Shown here: piece by piece, positions 5,492 through 60,558 of the stretch
Numbering within the stretch: the first letter of the stretch is position 1
Layout of the letters: the number at the start of each line of letters is the position of its first letter
Assembly (NCBI GenBank): GCA_035650875.1
Contig: DASRGU010000013.1
Coordinates: 14,495 to 78,494 of the forward strand
Source of the DNA: Vulcanimicrobiaceae bacterium
GTDB lineage: Bacteria > Vulcanimicrobiota > Vulcanimicrobiia > Vulcanimicrobiales > Vulcanimicrobiaceae
DNA length: 64,000 nt
Reading direction: 5' to 3'
Notes under the pieces: model-generated
Seen by the model: the letters and a program-made list of their open reading frames with translations, nothing else
What the model was told of the DNA's origin: nothing
The model's database searches: none
Translations under genes and position numbers: made by a program

Positions 5492-5664
5492 CGACCTCGA
5501 CCGGGCGACATACGACGCCCGGCCCCCATGGGACTTGGACGGAAAAACCCGCGCCGGCCGAAGACCGACGTCGGTACCCGCGAGTATACGGGAGAGGCGT
5601 GTTCTTGGCAACGGGGCAGCGAAAGCGTCGAGGAGCGCCCGCCGCCCCGGCGAATCGGCCCTGC

Positions 5665-6411
5665 ATGAAAGCGGGTGTCGTCGCGATTCTCGTCGCTTTC
5701 GCGTGCGCGGCAGCCGGGCAGCCGGCGCGCGCCCAACTGTTTCCGCCCTCACCGCCGGCGTCGATCGCGCCGTGCATGAGGCAGATGGCGCTGACGACGG
5801 TCGACGGAAATCCGAACGCTGCGATCCTGCGCATCGGGTACTGGACGCTGCCGCTCGCCGGCGACGTCCGCGTCTACGGGCACGACGTCATGTGGCACGC
5901 GACGCTTCACAACGGTGCAACGGCCGTGCAGCCTTTTCGGCCGCGCAATGCGCTCGAAGCGTCGGTCGAGCTGCACGCGCCCGGGCCCATCGAAGGCGTC
6001 GAGTTCACGCCGAGCGGCGCCTCGTGCACGCTGCATGCGGGACTCCGGCGGCCCACCATGTTCGACGGCGAGGCCGTACAGCGCCCGATCGTCGTTGCGA
6101 CGGATCCCGCGCCGGTCGCTCCGCCGTCATGTGCAAATCCGTATGCGTCGGTGCGCGTCGTGCGGGCGGCAGAGCCCGTGGCGCCGCCGATGGCGCGCCA
6201 GCAGGGGATCGCCGGCGACGTCACGGTGGCGCTCGCCGTCGACCGAACCGGCACCGTGACGTACGAGCAAATCCTGAGCTCACCGTCGGTCATCTTGAAC
6301 GCTGCGGGCGTCAACAGCGCGCGTACGTCGAAATTCTCACCAGCGGTCTTCCGCTGCGTGCCGGTGGACAACGGCTATGTCTTCGCTGCGGCCTTCGTGT
6401 CGGGCAGCTGA
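5665..6411 (+). CDS. Secreted protein with C-terminal TonB domain
   Basis: Signal peptide MKAGVVAILVAFACA; PPMARQQGIAGDVTVALAVDRTG...KFSPA TonB_C pattern. Confidence 0.75.
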   Translation: MKAGVVAILVAFACAAAGQPARAQLFPPSPPASIAPCMRQMALTTVDGNPNAAILRIGYWTLPLAGDVRVYGHDVMWHATLHNGATAVQPFRPRNALEASVELHAPGPIEGVEFTPSGASCTLHAGLRRPTMFDGEAVQRPIVVATDPAPVAPPSCANPYASVRVVRAAEPVAPPMARQQGIAGDVTVALAVDRTGTVTYEQILSSPSVILNAAGVNSARTSKFSPAVFRCVPVDNGYVFAAAFVSGS

Positions 6412-33489: not shown

Positions 33490-33563
33490 TCCCGGTTGAT
33501 GTAACGGCAACATGCCTCGCTCTGGACGAGGTCATCGAGGTTCGAATCCTTGACCGGGAGCCA
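33490..33563 (+). tRNA. tRNA-Gln (CUG)
   Basis: TCCCGGT/ACCGGGA acceptor stem, CCTCG-ctCTGga-CGAGG anticodon arm, GGTTCGAATCC, encoded CCA. Confidence 0.95.
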
Positions 33564-33564
33564 C

Positions 33565-33640
33565 GGCCCTATCGTCTAGAGGCCTAGGACGCCGCCCTCT
33601 CACGGCGGTAACACGGGTTCGAATCCCGTTGGGGCTACCA
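33565..33640 (+). tRNA. tRNA-Glu (CUC)
   Basis: GGCCCTA/TGGGGCT acceptor stem, CCGCC-ctCTCac-GGCGG anticodon arm, GGTTCGAATCC, encoded CCA. Confidence 0.95.
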
Positions 33641-49974: not shown

Positions 49975-51945
49975 CTAGGACCGGAAGTTCTGTGCGAACC
50001 AGTCGACCCAGCGGCGCGCGACGTCTTCCATGTGCAGCGGGTCGGCCGGAAAGTGCCCGTTGACCGGATAGATCAGCAGCTGCACCGGAGCTCCCGCCGC
50101 GCGCAGACTGTGGTAGAACTCGTACGACGTCGGCGTCGGCACGCGCTGGTCGCCGGCGTCGCTGACGATCAGCGTGCGCGTCTTGACGTTCGCCCAGTAG
50201 GTCTGCGGCGACTGTTCGATCGTCGTCCGCATCGCCGCTGCGTCGTTCCACGGATCGCCGCCGATGAGGATGTTCGCGTACGAGTCGATGTCGCCGATCG
50301 TCGCGACGTTCTCGAGCGAGTCGACGGCGGCGCCGTCGAACGCCGCGCGCCAGCGCGTATCGTGCGTGATCATCCACGACGTCATCCAGCCGCCCGCCGA
50401 CCATCCCGAGACACCGATGCGCGTCGTGTCGACGTGATAGCGCTTTTCGACGAGAGCGACCGACTCGAGGATGTCGCGCCCGGCGATCGACGCCGGGTGC
50501 TTGATCGACGTCGCGATGCCGCGTGCGCCGAGGCTGTTGCTGCCGCGGTAGTTCGGCTCGAGAACGAGCCAACCCCGCGCCGCCATCAGCTCCGGGACGC
50601 CGAGAAAGTCGAACCCGACGGATGACGCTCCGGTCGGGCCGCCGTGGATGTAGAGCACCATCGGATAGCGCTTCGCGCGATCGAAGCCGACGGGTTCGGT
50701 CACGACGGCATCGAGCGGGATCCCGTCCGGGCTCGTCCACGCGATCGTTCGCCGTGTACCCATCGGGTGCCGCGCGAACGCCGCATTCGAGTTCGTGAGC
50801 GCCGTGAGCCGGCTCGCGTGCGGCGCGAGCACGTACACCTCGGAAGGATCGTGCTCGGTGACGCCCGCGAACGCGAGGCTGCCGTTGCGCGCCGTCGAGA
50901 ACTCGACGTAATTCGCGTCGACGTCTCCGAACGGAAGCGGCTTGAACGAGCCGCCGCGCAGCACGTACCCGCGTCCACGCGTGCCGTCGCCGGCCGAGAT
51001 CACGACCGCTCCGCTCGCGTCGAACGCCGGCGGATCCGCGCTGCGATCGAGCCGCGCGCCGACGTCGACCGGGTGCGCGCCGTCCGCCGCAGCGACGATC
51101 ACGTCGTTCTGCAGCTGGGCGATACGGTTCGGCCCGAGGTACGCGACGCGCGCGCCGGCGCGGTCGTACACGGGGTCCATCGTCCCCGGCCCGGCGAAGA
51201 AGCGCACCGCGCCGCTCGGGACGACGGCGTACGCCGCTCGCGTACGCCCGTAGAAGTTGAACGATCCGTCCGGGTTCCACGTGAACGCGATCGCGCGGCC
51301 GTCGGGCCGCCACACGAGCTTGCTCGTCGGCGCGACGCCCCACGTCCCGTGGGTGAGCCGCTTCGCCTTTTTCGGATCGTCGCCGACGATCCAGATGTGC
51401 GCCGGGATCACCGCGCTGCGGGCCGTAAACGGCTGCTCCGTGATGACGAAGCCGTCGTCGTGCGCTTCGATGGCCTTCTTGTTCGGCGCGGTGTCGAGGG
51501 TGACGTACGCGATCCGCTTCCCGTGCGGGCTCCACGCGTAGATGGTGATGCCGTTCTCGGCCGCGGTCGCGGGTCGCGCTTCGCCCCCGTTCATCGGCAG
51601 CACGTAGACTTGCGCTTTCTTCTTCTCGTCGAGGCTGACGAACGCGAGCCGGTCGCCCGAGGGCGACCACCGCGGCGCGCTGACCATCGCGCGATCGACC
51701 GTCAACGCGCGCTTCGCATGCGTCGCGACGTCGATCACCACGAGCTCGGGCTTCGGATGATTCGCCGTGTAGTCGTTGCGCGTCTCCACGGCGGCGACGT
51801 AACGGCCGTCCGGCGAGAGCTGCGGGTCGGAATACCGGACGATCGTCCGAAGGTCGCTCAACGCGAGAGGAGCCGGCGCCCGGGCGGCGCCGAGCAACGC
51901 GACGGCGGCGATCATCGGAACGGCATGACGCAGCAGCGTCCTCAC
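49975..51945 (-). CDS. S9 family peptidase (secreted)
   Basis: GTGA overlap; PD40/beta-propeller repeats; IHGGP, GWSAGG, DQRV, GHF catalytic motifs. Confidence 0.9.
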   Translation of the reverse strand: MRTLLRHAVPMIAAVALLGAARAPAPLALSDLRTIVRYSDPQLSPDGRYVAAVETRNDYTANHPKPELVVIDVATHAKRALTVDRAMVSAPRWSPSGDRLAFVSLDEKKKAQVYVLPMNGGEARPATAAENGITIYAWSPHGKRIAYVTLDTAPNKKAIEAHDDGFVITEQPFTARSAVIPAHIWIVGDDPKKAKRLTHGTWGVAPTSKLVWRPDGRAIAFTWNPDGSFNFYGRTRAAYAVVPSGAVRFFAGPGTMDPVYDRAGARVAYLGPNRIAQLQNDVIVAAADGAHPVDVGARLDRSADPPAFDASGAVVISAGDGTRGRGYVLRGGSFKPLPFGDVDANYVEFSTARNGSLAFAGVTEHDPSEVYVLAPHASRLTALTNSNAAFARHPMGTRRTIAWTSPDGIPLDAVVTEPVGFDRAKRYPMVLYIHGGPTGASSVGFDFLGVPELMAARGWLVLEPNYRGSNSLGARGIATSIKHPASIAGRDILESVALVEKRYHVDTTRIGVSGWSAGGWMTSWMITHDTRWRAAFDGAAVDSLENVATIGDIDSYANILIGGDPWNDAAAMRTTIEQSPQTYWANVKTRTLIVSDAGDQRVPTPTSYEFYHSLRAAGAPVQLLIYPVNGHFPADPLHMEDVARRWVDWFAQNFRS

Positions 51946-53984
51946 TTCAGCCACCTCTCGAACCATCCGGCCCACGCTTTCATGATGCTCTCGCGCGCGA
52001 CCGGATCGCTCGGGAAGTGTCCCTCGCGCGGCCACGCCATGAACTCCACGGTCTTTCCGTTGTCGTGCAGCGCCCGGTACAGCTCGAACGACTGCGTGAT
52101 GGGTACGCGCTGATCGCCGATGTCGCTGAGGATCAGCAACGGCGTCGCGATGTGCGAGGCGTACGTCAGCGGCGACTCCTCGTCGAAGAACTGCTTTCCG
52201 GTCTTCGTCCACGGCGTCGCGCCGCCCAAGAAGGTCGACGTGAACTCCTCGTTGATGTCGGAGAGGACGGCTTGTTCGAACCAGTTGTCGACGCCGGCAC
52301 CGGACACGGCGGCGCGCCAGAAGTGCGCGTGTCCGACGAGCCAGGAGGTTTGCAGACCGCCGCCCGACCAGCCGCCCACGCCGATCCGCGACCGATCGAT
52401 GATCCCCATCGCCTCCACGGCCTGGACGCCCCGCAGATTGTCTCTGCCCGGTCCGCTGGCGACGTGCGGAACGATCGCTTGGAGAAACGCGTCGCCGGCG
52501 TTGTCGCTCCCCCGGTAGTTCGGCTCGAGGACGAGATAGCCGTGCGCGGCGAGCACTTGGACGAGCCCGCTGTCGTACCGATTGAAGTCCCACGTGGACG
52601 TGGACACCGGGCCGCCGTGGATGTTCAGCACGAGCGGGTACGTCCTGCCCGGTTTGAACCCGATCGGATACGTCAGCACGCCGTCGACCGTCAGTCCGTC
52701 GCTCTGCCACGTGATCGCTTCGCGCTTCGCGAGCGCGTAGCCCGAGAGCCACGCGTTTTCGTGCGTGAGCTGCTGCGGCGCCCCGCCGCCGCGCACGACG
52801 TAGATGTCGCCCGGATCGGTGCGGCTGACGCCGACGAACGCCATCGTTCCGTTCGACGCGATCGACACGGGCTCGGCCACGTCGACGTCGCCGAGATCGA
52901 CACGCTGCGACGAACCGTCCGCGGCGAGCCTCCACATCACGGACCGCACGCCGTCGTGCGCGCCGACGTAGAGCGCCTTGTCGTCCGGCGCCCAGCGCGT
53001 CCAAGCGACGTTCCGGTCGATGCCCTTTCCGCTCACGATCTCCGCGCCGCCGGCGAGCGAACGTACGCTCACGTCGTGCTGAAGGAAGGCGCTGCCGTGG
53101 CGCGGCCAGCTCAGCGCGATCTTCGTCCCGTCGTGCGACAACGTCCCGCCCGTATCGGGACCGTTCGCGATCGGCACCATCGCTCCGGACACGACGTCGA
53201 TGCGGTCGGTCTGCGCTTTCGAAAGATGGGCGAGCAGCGCATCGGGCCCCATCGTGGCGACGATCGTCTTCCCGTCCGGCGTGTATTGGAGCTCCGAGAA
53301 GTAGTCTGCGACGGACGCTTTCCCGGTCGTCAGCCGCTTCGGCTTGGAGCCATCCGCCTGCACCGTCCACACCGCGACCGGGACGGTCTCTTCGCGGGTG
53401 AGATAATGCTCGTCCGTCACGTAAAAGGCGGGGACATAGCCTTTGGGCTTCGGCGGCTTCGGCAGATCGCGCGCGGCGAAGGCGAAGCCCCCGCCGTCGG
53501 GACGCCACGCGAAGTCCGAGACGCCCGCCTTCACCGAGGTGACTTGCAGCGCGTCGCCGCCGTCCATGGGCAGCACGAAGATCTCCGGCGGTTTGTCGCG
53601 TTCCGGCGAAGCGAGGAACGCAAGCCGGTCGCCGTTCGGCGACCAGCGAATCTCGCTGATTCCGTGCCGGTCGTGAGTCAGCGCGCGTACCGAGCCGTTC
53701 GCGACGTCGACGAGCTCGATCTCGGTCGCTCGTTCGTCGGCCTTGTAGTCGCCGTGCGTGCGCACGTAGGCGACGCGCGTGCCGTCCGGCGCGATCTGCG
53801 CGTCCTCGATGCCGGCGAGGTTGCGCAGCGCCTCGAACGTGAGCGGCTTGAGCGTCGCCGCGGCCGGCGACGGCGTCGCCGTGACGGGCGCGGCCGCAGG
53901 CGCAGCGACCGGCAGGCTGAGGCACGCGACCGCCGACGCGCATGCCGCGGCGCGAGTGGCCGCCGAAGCACGAACTCCGTTCAT
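51942..53984 (-). CDS. S9 family peptidase (secreted), paralog
   Basis: Signal peptide; IHGGP, GWSGGG, DQRV, GHF. Confidence 0.9.
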   Translation of the reverse strand: MNGVRASAATRAAACASAVACLSLPVAAPAAAPVTATPSPAAATLKPLTFEALRNLAGIEDAQIAPDGTRVAYVRTHGDYKADERATEIELVDVANGSVRALTHDRHGISEIRWSPNGDRLAFLASPERDKPPEIFVLPMDGGDALQVTSVKAGVSDFAWRPDGGGFAFAARDLPKPPKPKGYVPAFYVTDEHYLTREETVPVAVWTVQADGSKPKRLTTGKASVADYFSELQYTPDGKTIVATMGPDALLAHLSKAQTDRIDVVSGAMVPIANGPDTGGTLSHDGTKIALSWPRHGSAFLQHDVSVRSLAGGAEIVSGKGIDRNVAWTRWAPDDKALYVGAHDGVRSVMWRLAADGSSQRVDLGDVDVAEPVSIASNGTMAFVGVSRTDPGDIYVVRGGGAPQQLTHENAWLSGYALAKREAITWQSDGLTVDGVLTYPIGFKPGRTYPLVLNIHGGPVSTSTWDFNRYDSGLVQVLAAHGYLVLEPNYRGSDNAGDAFLQAIVPHVASGPGRDNLRGVQAVEAMGIIDRSRIGVGGWSGGGLQTSWLVGHAHFWRAAVSGAGVDNWFEQAVLSDINEEFTSTFLGGATPWTKTGKQFFDEESPLTYASHIATPLLILSDIGDQRVPITQSFELYRALHDNGKTVEFMAWPREGHFPSDPVARESIMKAWAGWFERWLK

Positions 53985-53986
53985 GG

Positions 53987-56896
53987 TTACCGTCCGATCT
54001 GCAGCGAGTAGATCAGGCGATAGACCGCCGGACCGATGTTGCCCGATTCGATGATGCCCAGGTTCCCGACACCGATCCCGTGCGACCCGTTCACCAACGG
54101 CACCGGGATGCCGCCGAAGAAGTTGAAGTACGGCTGCGCGTACACTTGGGTGATGTTGTAGCCCGAGAGCTGCAGCGCACCCGTCTTGCCGATCTGCTGG
54201 CGGATCGTGCCCTGCCACACGACGAACGGCGGGTTGTTGTACGAGTTGTTGGGGCCGTAATACGTCATGCCGAGATTCGCATACAGACCCTTGCGCGTCT
54301 TGTAGTTGAGCTCCGCGTACCCTTGGGAGTACGGAACGCGTCCCGCGAGGGCGTTGACGTCCTCGACGCCGTTGAAGCCGATGCCGGTCGGCTGGAAATT
54401 GATCAGCGGAACGACGGCGAGGTTCGTGGTGTACGGCCCCGAGCTCGTCGCGTACAGCGAGTTCGGGATGTCGTACGCGAACGCGCGCATCAGCGAGCCC
54501 TGGACGCGAAAGCCCACGCCGACGATCGGATCGTCCACGACCTGCGCCTCGACGCCCTCGTAGCGTGCGTGTCCGAGATTCGCCGTCTCGGTGATGTACA
54601 GCGGCGCGGTCTGGCCGATCGCCCCGCCGCTCGTCGCCGTGTACGTGCCCTTCTGGTACGTCTCGTCGAGGAACATGTTGCGCAAGTTCGTCAGGTACAC
54701 GTCCGCGCTCGCGGAGATCCGCGCCGCGAGCCGCCGGTCGATGCCGAGATCGTAGCCGAACGCCGTCTCCGGGCTGATGTTGCCGTTGTTCACGTTCTCG
54801 GTGTAGTACGTCGGCGCACCCGGGATGTTGGGGACCGGCGCGCCTGCGGGCGCCGAGAGCAGGCTGATGTACGGCGGCGCGATGGACGCACCGGCGCTGA
54901 AACGGATCGCCGTGTCGGGGTTGGGACGCGCCAACAGCGCGAACCGCGGCGCGTCGAAGTGGTGCGAGGAATCGGCGAACGTCGCACCGCCGTTGCCCGA
55001 GTAATGGCTGGAGTAGTTGATGAGGTACTCCGCGAGCGTGGCGGAGACGTTCTTCGCCAGCGCGATCTGCGCTTCGCCCTTGATCGTCGTGAACTGCTGG
55101 CCCGAGCCGGGCGAAAGCTGGTACGCGTTGATCGCGTCGAGCGGCGCGTCGAGGAACTCCGTCGACTCGTGGTTCGACTGGTCGAACGAGATCGAGTACA
55201 TGTTGTCGCCGGCGGGCCGGTCGACCTCGAACGAATAGCCGTGCGAGTGGTCTTGATTCAGCTGCAGGTTCGGGTCGCCGCCCGTGCCTCCGATCGTGAC
55301 CTTCTGTCCGTTGAAGTACGTCATCGTCGCCGGCGGCCCGGCCGTTCCGTTGGGGAGGTTGCAGCCGCCGGCCGGCGTGGCGATGTCGCCCAGCGGGCAG
55401 AGCGGCACGCCGCCCCACGTCGCGAGCGTCATCGTCGACTCGCCGGGCGAGGTCGTCAGATCGGTCTCGTAGCTGCTGTAGATGCGCCCGAGAAACGTGT
55501 ACGGACCGATGCCGGTACGCAGCTCGGCTTGATACAAACCGGTCTGCGAGCTCGTCGTCGACATCAGCCCCGCGTTGTCGTCGAACACCGGGTTCGCGCC
55601 CGCCCCGACCGATCCCGTATAGCCCGGCGGAGGCACGAAGTCGAAGAACTGAATCCCCAGCCCGGTGAACGCCGCCAAGCTCGTCGAATTGCTGTCGTAC
55701 ACGGCCTGACCGCCCAGGAAGCTCATCGTCAGCGCGGTCTGCTGCGAAAAGTTCACGCGAATCTTCGCCAGCTCGCTGTCCTGGTGGAACCCGGTGTTGA
55801 GCGCGTTGCAGCAGAAGTACAGCGGCTGCGAAAGCCGGATCTCGCCGGGGTATCCGGCGTATTGCGGCGTGTTCGCCGGCACGAACGTCGTCGTGGGACC
55901 CGCGATCTGGCGGCCGTTGATCGTGTACGGCGCCGCGCCGAGATAGTCGAACGTCGTGGTCGAGCTCGGCACCATGAAGTTGTCGAGCGGCCCGGTCGTT
56001 CCGTCGGTCGCGAGCGCGAACGCGTAGTCGACGACGTGTCCGGGCAGCGAGCCCGTCGCGCGCGCCGTGGTCGTGATCCCGCCGTACTCGTCCGAGCCGA
56101 TGTTGAACGACTCGTGCGGCGTGCGGGTGGGCTGGAGCGTGATGTAGTTCACCGTACCGTTGATCGCGGAGTTGATCTCGGTCGCGAACGAACCCGGCCC
56201 CTTGACGACCTCGACGTCCTGCAGCACGCCCGGATTGATGAGGATCGGGTTGTACTCTCCCGTCGCGCCGATCGAGATCGGATGGCCGTCGATGAGCGAC
56301 TCGGTCTCGTACGGGAGGCCGCCGCGGATCATGACCGCCTGCGTCGTCCCCTGCGAAGCACCGTTCTGCTCCAGATGCGTCGTGATGATGCCGGGCGTCT
56401 CGTTCAGGATGTCGACGAGCTGCGGCTGGCCTTGGTCGACGAACGCCTGCGCGGTGACCACCGCGACCGACGACGGCGTCGTGTTGATCTGCGAGCGGCC
56501 GTTGACCGTCGCGGACGTTTGACCGATGACCCGCAGCGAGGTGAACGACGACTGCGCCATCGTCACGCGCAGCGAGACGGGCGCACCGGCGACGACGGCG
56601 ATGCCGGCGACGCGCGCGGTGTCGAAGCCGCTTCGCGTAACGACCACCGTGTAGACGCCGGGGGCGATGCCGGTTAAGGTGAAGGTTCCATCGCTCGCGC
56701 TGCGCGCTCCGGCGCGGCTGCCTTCGAGCGAGATCTGGGCGTTTGCGACGGGTTTGCCGTTCTGATCCACGACGGTGCCGCTGACCGCGCCTGCCGTGAC
56801 CGCATTCCCCCCTGCGTTCTGCGCTTGTGCACCGGCGAGTATCGGGCAGCCCACCCACGCGAGTCCCAACAGAAGTGAGAAAGCGAGTGGCTTCAA
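53987..56896 (-). CDS. TonB-dependent receptor with carboxypeptidase-regulatory-like N-domain
   Basis: Signal peptide, VSGTVVDQNGKPVANA, plug LIDGHP...VEVVKGPGS, NGNISPETAFGYDLG. Confidence 0.88.
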   Translation of the reverse strand: MKPLAFSLLLGLAWVGCPILAGAQAQNAGGNAVTAGAVSGTVVDQNGKPVANAQISLEGSRAGARSASDGTFTLTGIAPGVYTVVVTRSGFDTARVAGIAVVAGAPVSLRVTMAQSSFTSLRVIGQTSATVNGRSQINTTPSSVAVVTAQAFVDQGQPQLVDILNETPGIITTHLEQNGASQGTTQAVMIRGGLPYETESLIDGHPISIGATGEYNPILINPGVLQDVEVVKGPGSFATEINSAINGTVNYITLQPTRTPHESFNIGSDEYGGITTTARATGSLPGHVVDYAFALATDGTTGPLDNFMVPSSTTTFDYLGAAPYTINGRQIAGPTTTFVPANTPQYAGYPGEIRLSQPLYFCCNALNTGFHQDSELAKIRVNFSQQTALTMSFLGGQAVYDSNSTSLAAFTGLGIQFFDFVPPPGYTGSVGAGANPVFDDNAGLMSTTSSQTGLYQAELRTGIGPYTFLGRIYSSYETDLTTSPGESTMTLATWGGVPLCPLGDIATPAGGCNLPNGTAGPPATMTYFNGQKVTIGGTGGDPNLQLNQDHSHGYSFEVDRPAGDNMYSISFDQSNHESTEFLDAPLDAINAYQLSPGSGQQFTTIKGEAQIALAKNVSATLAEYLINYSSHYSGNGGATFADSSHHFDAPRFALLARPNPDTAIRFSAGASIAPPYISLLSAPAGAPVPNIPGAPTYYTENVNNGNISPETAFGYDLGIDRRLAARISASADVYLTNLRNMFLDETYQKGTYTATSGGAIGQTAPLYITETANLGHARYEGVEAQVVDDPIVGVGFRVQGSLMRAFAYDIPNSLYATSSGPYTTNLAVVPLINFQPTGIGFNGVEDVNALAGRVPYSQGYAELNYKTRKGLYANLGMTYYGPNNSYNNPPFVVWQGTIRQQIGKTGALQLSGYNITQVYAQPYFNFFGGIPVPLVNGSHGIGVGNLGIIESGNIGPAVYRLIYSLQIGR

Positions 56897-57200
56897 AGCA
56901 ACCTCGAGCTCGTCAGTTTTCTTGCGAGAGCACGGAACGCTGTGAAACGGAATTTCGCCGGACTCCTAGAAGACCGGACGCGTTCCTGCTCCGCGTCGCG
57001 GATTCGGCGACGGTGACAGGCTGTCCCCCCTCATACCGCTCCTCGCGTTCGCGGCGCGGCGCGAGCAGCTCACGGCCGCCGGCAGCTGTGCGTCCTCGCC
57101 TCAGCTGCGGCAGGGAGCGCGCGCATGCGCTCGTAACGGCATCATGCAGCGCCGGCGCGGTCGCGCGCCGGATCGGCGAACGCGGTTTGAGAGGCACGGC

Positions 57201-57617
57201 ATGAAAAACGAAGCCATCATCGGCGGCATCACGATCGGCGGCCAGCCCTCGCGGGACGAGCTGCGGTCGGGCCGATTCGCGCACGTCGTCAACATCCGCG
57301 CCGCGGGTGAAGAGGGGAACGATTCGGAATCGGCGCTCGCGGGCAGCGACGTCGGCTACACGCACGTTCCGTGGACGATCGACAGCGTGACCGGCGACGA
57401 CATCGACCGCATCGAACGAGCGGTCACGGACGCGAACGGTGCCGTTCTCGTCCATTGAGCGGGCGGCACGCGGGCCGCGGTCGCGGCCGCCGTCATCCAG
57501 GCAAAGCGTGAAGGCACCGGCGAGCGCGGCGCGATGAAGGCCGCCGCCGACGCGGGGTTCCCGGTCGAACGAACGCCGTACGGCGACTTCATCCGGCGGT
57601 ACTTCGCCGGGCGGTAG
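57201..57617 (+). CDS. DUF442/PTP-like sulfurtransferase-phosphatase with in-frame TGA (probable selenocysteine, codon 86)
   Basis: IGGQPS..VVNIR..YTHVP..VLVH-TGA-AGGTRA completes an HCx5R loop; frame continues 52 codons to TAG at 57615-57617. Confidence 0.85.
57462..57494 (+). promoter_or_regulatory. Putative bacterial SECIS element
   Basis: GGCGGC/GCCGUC lower stem, ACGCG bulge, GGCCGC/GCGGCC upper stem, GGUC apical loop starting 20 nt after UGA. Confidence 0.65.
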
Positions 57618-57655
57618 AAACGCGTCGAGCCGCACGCGCGCAGCGCGCGACGTCG

Positions 57656-57979
57656 TTACCGGCGAGGTCCGGAGATCAACACGCGCTGCGCGACGATGAG
57701 AATCAGCAGGAACGCGATCCCGGCGAGCGGCACGGCATATGCAGGACCGCGAGCCGGCCCTGCGTCCGCGGACCGCACGAGCGCAACACTGAACGCGACC
57801 GCGATGCACGGCAACACCAGGATGAAGCCGCGCGGGCCGTACGTGACGTCGCCGGTGTCGCCGCCCCAGCGCGTCGGAATGCGGGGCGGCAAGCGGCGCC
57901 ACGCGCGAAACGTCGTCACGAGGAGCGCGGCGAGCGCAGCCGCCTGAATCGCGAACAGCGCCTCCACCAGGTCGCGCAT
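57656..57979 (-). CDS. DUF1648-like membrane protein
   Basis: [21 protein letters not shown], three hydrophobic segments. Confidence 0.7.
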
Positions 57980-58041
57980 GCAGACATCATAGCACGGCCG
58001 GGCGCGCCGGGTTGGAGCGGCGTCGCAACGAAGGGGCCGCA

Positions 58042-60558
58042 ATGACGCTGCTGGAGCGCGCCGCGCTCGTCGAGCGCATCGCCGGGGTGGCGCGAAGCGT
58101 CGCGCTCGTTTCGCTGCACGCCCCTCCCGGCTACGGGAAGACGATCGTGCTCGATGCGGTCGCCGGGCGCCTCGGCGCCGAGGTCGCGCGCTACGACGCC
58201 GCGCCGTGGGACGCGAACGTCTTCGTCGAGCCGCTCGTCGAGGCGGTACGCACGGCTCGCCCGGACTTCGGCCGGGCGACGCTCGCGCTCGCGGCGCTAG
58301 GCGCCGAGCCGCAGCGGATCGGCGCGACGTTCGCGGCCGACCTGCGTCACGTCACCGAGCCGCTCACGATCGCAGTCGACGACGCGCACCTGCTGGGCGA
58401 GGCGTTCGCCGCGTTCGTCGACGCACTCGTTCCGCGACTTCCGCGGCACGTGCATCTTCTCGTCGCATCGCGCGGCGCGCCGGGGTTCGCGCTCGCCGAG
58501 ATGGTCGCACGCGAGCGCGCCGCGGCGTTCGGATCCGACGATCTGCGCTTCGATTCCGCCGACGCGGCCACGCTGGCGGCGGCGTGCGGCTCGCGGCTGA
58601 ACGAGCGCGAGATCGAGCTGCTCGTGCAGCGCACCGAAGGCTGGCCGGCTGGGATCGCCGTGGCGCTGCGCACCGGCGTGCGGACGATTCCAAGCGCCCG
58701 CGCGTCGTACGACGCGGCCTCCGCATTCCTCGCCGAGCACCTGGCGCGCAACTTCTCCGCGGACGAGATCGCGGTGCTCGAGCGTGTTTCCGTCTACGAG
58801 CTCGTCGACGAAGCGGTGCTCGGCACGCTCGGCGATCCGGCGGCGCGCGCGCACCTGCGCGCGATCGCTCGCCGCGGCGACATGGTCTCCGAAACCGCGC
58901 ACGGCGCGTACCGCGTTCATCCGATGCTGCGCGACGTGGTCCTCGCGCGTCTGCGGCGCGAGCGGGGCGAGGCGGCCGTCGAAGATGCGCATGCCGCTGC
59001 GGCGCGTCTGGCCGCGCGACGACGCGCGCTGGGCGCCACGATCCACCACTTGCGTCTCGCGAAGCGACCGGCCCTGACGCGCGCATTGCTGCGCGAGCTG
59101 GGCGCCGTCGCGGTTGCCGCGGGATACGGAGACGACGTCGCAGCACTCGGGGCGCAGCTCGCGCCGCGCGAGTCCGGCGACGACGCGCTCGTCGCGTATC
59201 TGGTCGCTCTCGCCGAGAAGCGCAGCGGCGCACCGGCCCGCGAGCGTTTCGTCGAAGCGTCGGCCGCCGCCGATGCCGGATCCGAGGCATCGATCGCGTT
59301 CCTCGCCCGGCTCGAGATCGCCGAAAACGACCTCGGCCGCGGACGTGCGCTCGCGCGCGGCCAGACCGACGAGCTGCTGCGACGCGCGCAGTCGCTCGGA
59401 CCCGCTGCCGTCGCGTCCGCCACGCTGCGCGCCGCGTGGGCCGACGTACTCGACGGCGCTTTCGAGAGCGCGTTGCACCGCATCGCCGCCGTCGCGTTGA
59501 CGGCCGATCCGCTCGAGCGCTGGTTCGTCGCGCCGATGACGGCGTACGCATACACCGCGCTCGGGCGGTTCGACGACGCCGAACGCGAGATGCACTTGCT
59601 GCTGGACGCGCTCGCCGAGACCGACGCGCTGGGCCTGCGCGTTCACGCCCTCGTCTGGGCGGTCCGTCTGGCCCTGCTGCGCGGCGACACCGAATCCGCC
59701 TGGGGCGGCGCGCTGGAGCTGCTCGCCGCGCCGGTCGCCGACGGACGCGGCGCCTCCGCCGCGCATGCGATCGCGATCGCCGAGGCGGCAACGCACGCGG
59801 GCGATGCGGCGATCGCCGAACGCTATGCCGCGCAGGCGTCGCGCGACGCCGCGTCGGCGTGGTACGTCGGCGACGTGGAGCGCATTCCGGCGCAGGCGGC
59901 GGGTCTTCGCGCCCGCGCGGCGTTCCTGCGCGGCGACGTGCGGCATGCGCTGGCGATCGCGCGCGCCGCCGCGCCGGACGCGCCTGCGCCGCAGCGCGCC
60001 TTGCTCGCGGCGGAATCCGCGGCGTATGCGGCGCTCGGCGGCGGCGACGTCCGCGGCGCCGTCGCATCCGCGCGCGAGGCGCACGCCTCGGCGCTCGCGC
60101 GCGACGCCGCCGACGCGACGGCGCTGCACGACGCCGCGCAGCTCGTCGACGCGCTCGCCGCGCGCGACGCGGGCGCGCGGGCCGAGCTCGCCATCGGCGG
60201 TCCGTTTGCCGCGCTGCTGCGCCGCCGAGCGCCGCTGCGCGCTGCGACGAGCGCGGCGAACGGCGTGCGGTTCGAAGCGGCGCTGCTCGCGCGCGCGCTC
60301 GGGGCGGCGGGCGATCGAACCGCCACGCCGCACGCCGGCGCACTTCTCGAGCCGCTCACGCCGCGCGAGCACGAGATCCTCGAGCTTCTCGCCGGCGGCC
60401 TCACGAACAAAGAGATCGCGCAACGTCTCGTCGTCAGCCCTCGCACCGTCGAGACGCACGTCGCACGCGTGCTCGGAAAGCTCGGCGTCACGTCGCGCTC
60501 GCGGGCGATCGCGAAAGCCCTCGCGACGGGACTCATCGCACGAATCGCGCCGGCGTAG
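58042..60558 (+). CDS. MalT-like LuxR family regulator (AAA + TPR + HTH)
   Basis: [44 protein letters not shown]. Confidence 0.9.

Follow-up and report, generated by a model that had tools for sequence, protein, structure and literature searches.

The window analysed here is a 64-kb stretch (64,000 nucleotides (nt)) of contig DASRGU010000013.1 from a Vulcanimicrobiaceae bacterium, and our subject is a small gene on its forward strand (57201–57617) whose reading frame is interrupted by one in-frame TGA in the context VLVH-*-AGGTRAAV. We interpret this gene as encoding a probable selenoprotein of the DUF442 family, in which the UGA would stand for selenocysteine (Sec) at the position of a catalytic cysteine and would be followed by a selenocysteine insertion sequence (SECIS) within the coding sequence. 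Beyond the TGA the frame stays open for 52 sense codons before it ends in TAG, giving a read-through product of 138 residues, exactly as had been noted in an initial annotation made from the DNA letters. Gene callers give just 57201–57458, a product of 85 residues that carries the NCBI label "sulfur transferase domain-containing protein". Because the N-terminal sequence MKNEA is common to all homologues, we place the start at the ATG at 57201 and not at the upstream ATG at 57144. The features of the gene are collected in Table 1.

Table 1. Features of the predicted selenoprotein gene, in window coordinates
Feature	Position	Strand	Details	Basis
Predicted complete selenoprotein coding sequence	57201–57617	+	138 codons including Sec86, then TAG 57615–57617	translation
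UGA, codon 86, probably read as selenocysteine	57456–57458	+	catalytic Cys position of the loop H-U-A-G-G-T-R-A	
Predicted active-site loop H85-U86-A-G-G-T-R91-A92 (C/U-x4-R)	57453–57476	+		alignments and AlphaFold2 (AF2) model of a Cys homologue
Possible Shine-Dalgarno sequence GAGAGG	57189–57194	+	6 nt 5' of ATG	sequence reading only
Conserved core of the putative SECIS	57473–57488	+	stem 57473–57478 / 57483–57488 (6 bp here; 5 inner pairs universal)	
Apical tetraloop GGUC	57479–57482	+	starts 20 nt after UGA	
Whole two-stem hairpin	57462–57494	+	lower stem 57462–57467 / 57489–57494; 5-nt 5' internal loop 57468–57472	

UGA and cysteine codons at position 86

Because the window comes from a metagenome assembly, and our comparison with other assemblies was made at the level of contigs, we considered whether the base at 57458 might be wrong, through faulty sequencing or assembly, or might reflect a nonsense mutation private to one strain. 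The TGA recurs, however, when the source sample is assembled independently (Logan), with 0 differences from the window over 57100–57700 at a word depth of ~17x. A diverged contig of another soil metagenome retains it as well, with 14 differences from the window and none at 57456–57458. As TGA also occupies the same codon in 34 other genes, we regard an error or private mutation as so improbable that it can be set aside.

To follow codon 86 through the family, we read it in homologous DNA from 19 species-representative genomes, 40 metagenome contigs and several long contigs. Public genomes and metagenomes yielded 60 homologous genes, in which the codon is TGA in 35 cases and TGC or TGT in 25 and is never TAA or TAG. 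This result both supplies the TGA/Cys pairs that the initial annotation had looked to relatives for and dispels its concern that the TGA might be unique to one assembly. In all TGA forms the frame remains open for ~50 further codons, with the motifs AGGTRAAVAAA...GTPY..F...YF, before a real stop is reached. A neighbor-joining tree shows the TGA and Cys forms interleaved, with at least six switches between them, and TGA forms reach even a clade that is only ~40% identical to the window protein.

Protein searches gave a matching picture, with ~50 distinct clusters of 85-residue products ending in ...VL[IV]H at the same position as the TGA of the window gene and ~20 full-length homologues (136–147 residues) that carry H-C-[AM]-G-[GA]-T-R-A. 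Several open reading frames (ORFs) of 50 codons match residues 88–136 only. The subfamily is small, with 18 representatives at E ≤ 1e-10 among 1.84 billion, about half of which end at residue 85; it appears to be restricted to Eremiobacterota, the named source organisms of the homologues being members of that phylum (Ca. Elarobacter, Vulcanimicrobiaceae). The genetic code is not reassigned in these organisms, because UGA is the commonest normal stop in the window (the terminal stops of 41 confident ORFs are 18 TGA, 15 TAG and 8 TAA) and TGA also serves as the terminal stop of several members of the family itself.

Two further observations concern the distribution of the two forms. One metagenome-assembled genome, JBOHTW01 (Vulcanimicrobiaceae TC-B2 bin.13), contains a TGA form (L007, 3001–3408) together with a TGC form (L013, 1190–1597), which are either natural Sec/Cys paralogues of one organism or the product of a mixed bin. 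The loop U-[AM]-[GA]-[GA]-[TM]-R is kept in all TGA forms, and a degenerate loop is found in some of the Cys forms (L005, L010 and L031), which read H-C-M-L-A-M/A-R or H-C-M-A-G-L-R and are without the consensus G-G-T. From these alignments the active-site constraint seems tighter in the Sec forms than in the Cys forms.

We next compared the ratio of nonsynonymous to synonymous substitution rates (dN/dS, Nei-Gojobori) on the two sides of the codon. For the TGA forms, it is ~0.33 before the UGA, 0.24 over the next 14 codons and 0.26 over the rest, and the corresponding values for the same three segments of the Cys forms are 0.33, 0.29 and 0.35. These ratios argue that the segment 3' of the UGA is translated and is held under purifying selection like that acting on the 5' part. 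A genuine stop at the UGA, leaving either a pseudogene or an N-terminal fragment of 85 residues, would agree with the gene-caller and NCBI annotation and with the failure to find Sec machinery in the window or in ~250 kb of Eremiobacterota loci (see below). Against it stand the occurrence of TGA at the same codon in 35 genes of divergent lineages, with TAA or TAG at none, and the ~50 open codons downstream with their dN/dS of ~0.26; in addition, the fold is a compact single domain, and the fragment would be missing its active-site loop and three of its helices. We consider a genuine stop very improbable, and conclude that the 85-residue database product is an annotation artefact. That automated annotation would truncate the gene had been anticipated from the DNA alone, and 85-residue stubs are indeed what the databases contain.

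The codon that follows the UGA bears on a different kind of explanation. In the 31 distinct TGA forms it is GCN (Ala) in the window gene and 19 others and ATG in 11, and where ATG follows the UGA, a C-terminal ORF of 50 residues is called separately (L066, 10259–10411; P0118, P0140, P0175 and P0176), and the two halves of the selenoprotein consequently appear in public databases as unrelated "proteins". The TGA-ATG arrangement, with the 50-residue ORF called there, could be taken to mean that the gene is split, translation stopping at the UGA and restarting so that polypeptides of 85 and 50 residues assemble non-covalently. However, the window gene and the 19 other forms with GCN have no nearby start codon, and the Met belongs to the family motif, being found in Cys forms too (H-C-M-G-G-T-R). 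A split would moreover delete the catalytic residue and leave the Sec-specific conservation of the hairpin described below unexplained, and we find it hardly credible.

The hairpin 3' of the UGA

The two-stem hairpin proposed in the initial annotation can be drawn in the window as described, with GGUC at its apex, and has a calculated folding energy of −20.8 kcal/mol, of which the upper stem-loop alone gives −11.7 kcal/mol. Its lower stem did not hold up: across the family it is paired in just 64.5% of cells in that register, and we reject it as a conserved feature. The upper stem-loop conforms to the bacterial SECIS model, which specifies a loop of 3–9 nt, a stem of at least 4 bp and a G in the first two loop positions, with further limits of 16–37 nt on the spacing and at most −7.5 kcal/mol on the energy (PMC13188914); the window hairpin has a 6-bp stem, the loop GGUC, a spacing of 20 nt and the energy given above.

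The evidence for the hairpin comes from its homologues. The 31 distinct TGA forms align without gaps (column 1 being the T of TGA), and columns 19–23 pair with columns 28–32 in 155 of 155 cells around an invariant GGUC loop (columns 24–27). Pair 21:30, which in the window joins C57476 to G57485 and is formed between two synonymous sites, is CG in 21 forms, UA in 8, GC in 1 and UG in 1, and pair 18:33 is CG in 9, GC in 9, GU in 1 and unpaired in 12. None of 500 shuffles reached the covariation score of the TGA forms, so that the covariation looked for in relatives was also found. When the same columns are examined in the 19 distinct aligned Cys forms, they pair in 81.6% of cells, a level that is not above chance (110 of 500 shuffles reached it for pairing and 101 of 500 for covariation), and GGUC is present in 5 of the 19. 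The full 5-bp stem together with GGUC is found in all 31 TGA forms and in 3 of the 19 Cys forms (Fisher p = 2e-10); this p value carries no correction for phylogeny, though the comparison is partly independent because the tree is interleaved. Columns 24 and 27, the third positions of codons +7 and +8, show 0 bits of variation in the TGA forms as opposed to 0.91 and 1.17 bits in the Cys forms.

Two details lie 5' of the conserved stem. Alignment column 15 (window position 57470), a Thr third position, is G in 29 of the 31 TGA forms and carries 0.35 bits there against 1.19 bits in the Cys forms, a bias that hints at an RNA constraint in this region that is unexplained by a simple hairpin model. 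RNAalifold also gives a small helix between columns 8–10 and 14–16.

We compared the hairpin with the SECIS of Escherichia coli fdhF, whose apical tetraloop in NC_000913.3 is GGUC and begins 18 nt after the UGA. U17 and G23 of that element are named as SelB binding sites, and G23 and U24 are conserved loop positions (PMC8659212). Both hairpins lie inside the coding sequence directly 3' of the UGA and share an identical apical GGUC with the conserved G and U. They differ in that the loop starts 20 nt after the UGA in the window gene and not 18 nt, the upper stem here is G+C-rich and of 5–6 bp, and the lower stem is not conserved. An Rfam scan of 57380–57580 returned chance-level matches only, and no bacterial SECIS model was among them.

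Several observations weigh against the decoding of this UGA as Sec. Taken as a single sequence, 57450–57520 has a fold z-score of −0.13 relative to shuffles, which is not above chance, and a loose bacterial SECIS model is satisfied by ~16% of random positions in this window of 69% GC. The codons of the Ala-Ala-Val-Ala-Ala stretch (GCN GCN GUN GCN GCN) by themselves impose four of the five core stem pairs, and the bulged U17 of fdhF is without an evident counterpart in the window hairpin. ARAGORN, run on the window and 60 loci, detected no tRNA-Sec, and no SelA, SelB or SelD was detected when the E. coli proteins served as tblastn queries against the window and ~250 kb of other Eremiobacterota loci. 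No RNA runs containing the gene are listed, and we found no literature report of Sec use in Eremiobacterota.

Since the single-sequence hairpin is not above chance, its significance rests only on the comparison with homologues, and since four of the core pairs are dictated by codons, it is understandable that 3 of the 19 Cys forms make the same hairpin; for the same reason the synonymous third positions are the informative sites. In the alignments these third positions behave as RNA structure predicts, and we conclude from them that maintenance of the hairpin is specific to genes with UGA at this codon, with compensatory changes at synonymous sites.

A UGA that alternates with Cys codons at one specific site, accompanied by a conserved fdhF-type GGUC hairpin at a fixed distance, is the signature of SelB-dependent Sec insertion. 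We propose that UGA 57456–57458 is decoded during translation, almost certainly as selenocysteine, and put the probability of this reading at roughly 0.87–0.9. Decoding would follow the standard bacterial route, in which the mRNA hairpin 57473–57488 with its GGUC loop would act as a SECIS; SelB, the Sec-specific elongation factor, would bind it and bring Sec-tRNA(Sec) to the ribosome. The suggestion of a probable selenoprotein, already made in the initial annotation, thereby gains the support of the UGA/Cys alternation, of selection after the UGA and of a UGA-specific hairpin with covariation.

The Sec identity of the inserted residue, the presence of selA, selB, selC and selD in the organism and the activity of the enzyme are points that we infer, and this leaves room for a Sec-independent recoding of the UGA, in which read-through or a suppressor tRNA would insert one of the standard amino acids Cys, Trp and Gly. 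A general reassignment is contradicted by the use of UGA as the commonest stop in the window and as the end of several family members, and alternation with Cys codons only, together with the fixed-distance GGUC hairpin, would be hard to account for in this way; such recoding strikes us as improbable.

Across co-occurring strains, nucleotide conservation within the gene is highest in the segment 57452–57497, which comprises the UGA and the hairpin. This segment is also the sole matching stretch for several otherwise unrelated contigs of two soil metagenomes, some of them deeper than the contig of the window itself. We also scanned 378 kb of Eremiobacterota DNA blindly for any in-frame TGA that has a coding-like frame on either side and is followed 16–29 nt downstream by a hairpin with a G[GU]NN loop and a stem of 5 bp or more; only this gene family was returned. 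A second Sec candidate in the window, TGA 6409–6411, was rejected as the ordinary stop of a TonB_C-domain protein (5599–6411); it is followed by 191 open codons of coding-like composition, and this downstream frame is without a Pfam match.

A DUF442 protein and its possible chemistry

With Cys put in place of Sec, the window protein matches the Pfam family PF04273 (BLH_phosphatase/DUF442) with a score of 35.1 bits (cut-off 26.1; E = 1.7e-8). A profile search of the PDB sequences gave 3gxg/3gxh, deposited as "putative phosphatase (DUF442)", at E = 5e-8, together with 2f46 and, at a weaker level, TpbA. The UGA/Cys column aligns with the Cys of HCLANYRA and of YCRTGTRC in the DUF442 crystal structures (3gxg and 2f46), in agreement with the placement of the TGA at the catalytic Cys of the loop that had been proposed from the start. 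The AF2 model of P0001, a Cys homologue that is 70% identical to the window protein, is a compact single domain with a predicted local distance difference test score (pLDDT) of 95.7, in which a strand (82–85) leads into the loop with Cys86 and is followed by a helix (90–104) and two more helices. In a Foldseek search with this model, the DUF442 structures 3gxh/3gxg and 2f46 came first, followed by dual-specificity phosphatases. Taken together, the profile matches and the model place the protein in the DUF442 (PF04273) branch of the protein-tyrosine-phosphatase (PTP) fold, as the initial annotation had suggested, and on the same model an 85-residue product would be without the catalytic loop and one third of the fold.

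Other family signatures set limits on this assignment. The Blh model NF040641 scored 41.3 bits against a cut-off of 625, with a match to only the first 123 of its 423 profile positions, which correspond to the N-terminal sulfurtransferase domain, and the rhodanese family PF00581 gave no match at E ≤ 0.1. The signature of PTPs and dual-specificity phosphatases, H-C-x5-R(S/T), is absent, as four residues separate the nucleophile from the Arg in all family members. The motif HCx5R given in the initial annotation was therefore mistaken: the loop U-A-G-G-T-R is of the C/U-x4-R type and is one residue shorter than the C-x5-R of PTPs.

Comparison with three groups of proteins helps to define what is particular to the window protein. 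Cys-type DUF442 domains (Xylella/Agrobacterium Blh, Cupriavidus SQR, 3gxh and 2f46) share with it the Pfam family, the PTP-like fold and a site built from a strand, C-x4-R and a helix, and the window UGA aligns with their essential Cys. They differ in having Cys where Sec is predicted here and in an identity of 17–40%, and, unlike the domains of Blh and of Cupriavidus SQR, the window protein stands alone, neither fused to nor adjoining a persulfide dioxygenase or SQR. The rhodanese-like selenoproteins (PF00581, forms 1–5) likewise have Sec for the catalytic Cys of a sulfurtransferase-type loop, are predicted to be sulfur or selenium carriers and were also found by UGA/Cys pairing (PMC13188914), but their fold is non-homologous and they belong to another Pfam family. 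PTPs and dual-specificity phosphatases (SDP-1, TpbA and DUSP23) have the same overall fold (template modelling (TM) score ~0.7–0.8) and the nucleophile at the N terminus of the loop after the central strand; they differ in their C-x5-R, as against C-x4-R here, and in an identity of 12–22%.

Characterised Cys-type DUF442 domains transfer sulfur via a Cys persulfide. The N-terminal DUF442 domain of Blh has thiosulfate:cyanide and thiosulfate:glutathione (GSH) activity, for which the active-site Cys is needed (PMC5823870), and the DUF442 domain of Cupriavidus SQR is a rhodanese-type sulfurtransferase whose function is abolished in the C94S mutant (PMC9163753). The window protein is without any Cys, and Sec86 would therefore be its sole chalcogen nucleophile, so that a carrier-type mechanism with an enzyme-Se-S(-) adduct fits better than a dithiol redox mechanism. 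By analogy with the characterised domains, Sec86 in its U-x4-R loop may take up sulfane sulfur, or selenium, as an enzyme-Se-S(-) or Se-Se(-) adduct, which would then be handed on to a thiol, sulfite, cyanide or a similar acceptor. A rhodanese-like carrier of the sulfurtransferase type is thus the function that we favour by a narrow measure, at slightly better than even odds.

Three results count against this functional assignment. The TIGR01244 model scored 40.3 bits, below its cut-off of 85.85; clustering of the flanking ORFs across the loci, together with six 20-kb contexts, revealed no conserved partner gene; and no sqr, pdo or sel genes were present in any context inspected. Nor does a dioxygenase gene lie near the window gene. 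Because the gene stands alone and its neighbours vary among lineages, the substrate is proposed here from family membership.

The main alternative is that the protein is a true selenoprotein with phosphatase or arsenate-reductase, or redox-sensing, chemistry in place of sulfur or selenium transfer. The fold matches SDP-1, TpbA and DUSP23 nearly as well as it matches the DUF442 structures, some of which were deposited as "putative phosphatase", Sec-containing arsenate reductases are known, and no sulfur-oxidation genes lie nearby. The loop, on the other hand, is C/U-x4-R as in DUF442 and rhodanese-type sulfurtransferases and not C-x5-R, and the only biochemically tested DUF442 domains are sulfurtransferases; we judge this alternative to be possible but distinctly the less likely course. 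A more specific version of the carrier function, that the family is a dedicated selenium/sulfane carrier (Se-Se(-)/Se-S(-) on the lone Sec), for example feeding SelD, and not a helper in sulfide detoxification, is a doubtful speculation, as is the idea that these soil and peat bacteria might retain a Sec machinery principally on its account. Naturally occurring pairs of Sec and Cys forms, among them one within a single genome, would offer a clean system in which to measure the contribution of selenium to persulfide-type transfer.

Relation to known selenoproteins and neighbouring genes

A review of May 2026 gives domain identifiers for the 119 prokaryotic selenoprotein families and subfamilies that it lists (PMC13188914). 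Neither PF04273 nor TIGR01244 nor any PTP-fold domain is in this catalogue, whose functionally nearest entries are the five rhodanese (PF00581) forms of unrelated fold (PMC13188914), and the initial annotation was thus right that this is not a standard bacterial selenoprotein family. The BSepDB paper makes no mention of a DUF442 selenoprotein, no selenoprotein-specific NCBIfam model matches the window protein, and we found no literature report that connects DUF442 with selenoproteins or TIGR01244 with selenocysteine, the supplementary lists of large metagenome-assembled genome screens being outside the scope of this search. That the gene represents a new selenoprotein family relative to current lists is, in terms of sequence comparison, well supported; its mechanism would be an ordinary bacterial one, with Sec replacing a catalytic Cys at a UGA and a SECIS located within the coding sequence.

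If correct, this would be the first selenoprotein with a PTP fold, adding the PTP/DUF442 fold class to those of the 2026 catalogue, and the first sign of selenocysteine use in Eremiobacterota, an abundant and almost uncultured phylum of soil and peat. It would also correct a systematic annotation error, by which ~50 protein clusters are recorded as 85-residue stubs labelled "sulfur transferase domain" or "DUF442 phosphohydrolase" and others as orphan ORFs of 50 residues.

The only tRNA genes in the window are an adjacent pair, tRNA-Gln(CTG) and tRNA-Glu(CTC), at 33490–33640. Upstream of the gene and on the opposite strand (51942–56896), two tandem S9/Tricorn-like peptidases of 656 and 680 residues are accompanied by a 969-residue outer-membrane receptor with CarboxypepD_reg and Plug domains. 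This looks like a peptide-uptake cluster with no evident link to the selenoprotein, and other lineages do not share this arrangement. On the downstream side, a small DUF1648-like membrane protein is encoded convergently with the selenoprotein gene (57656–58042, minus strand), and its ORF is overlapped by ~30 nt by that of an 848-residue MalT/LuxR-type (GerE) regulator (58012–60558, plus strand).

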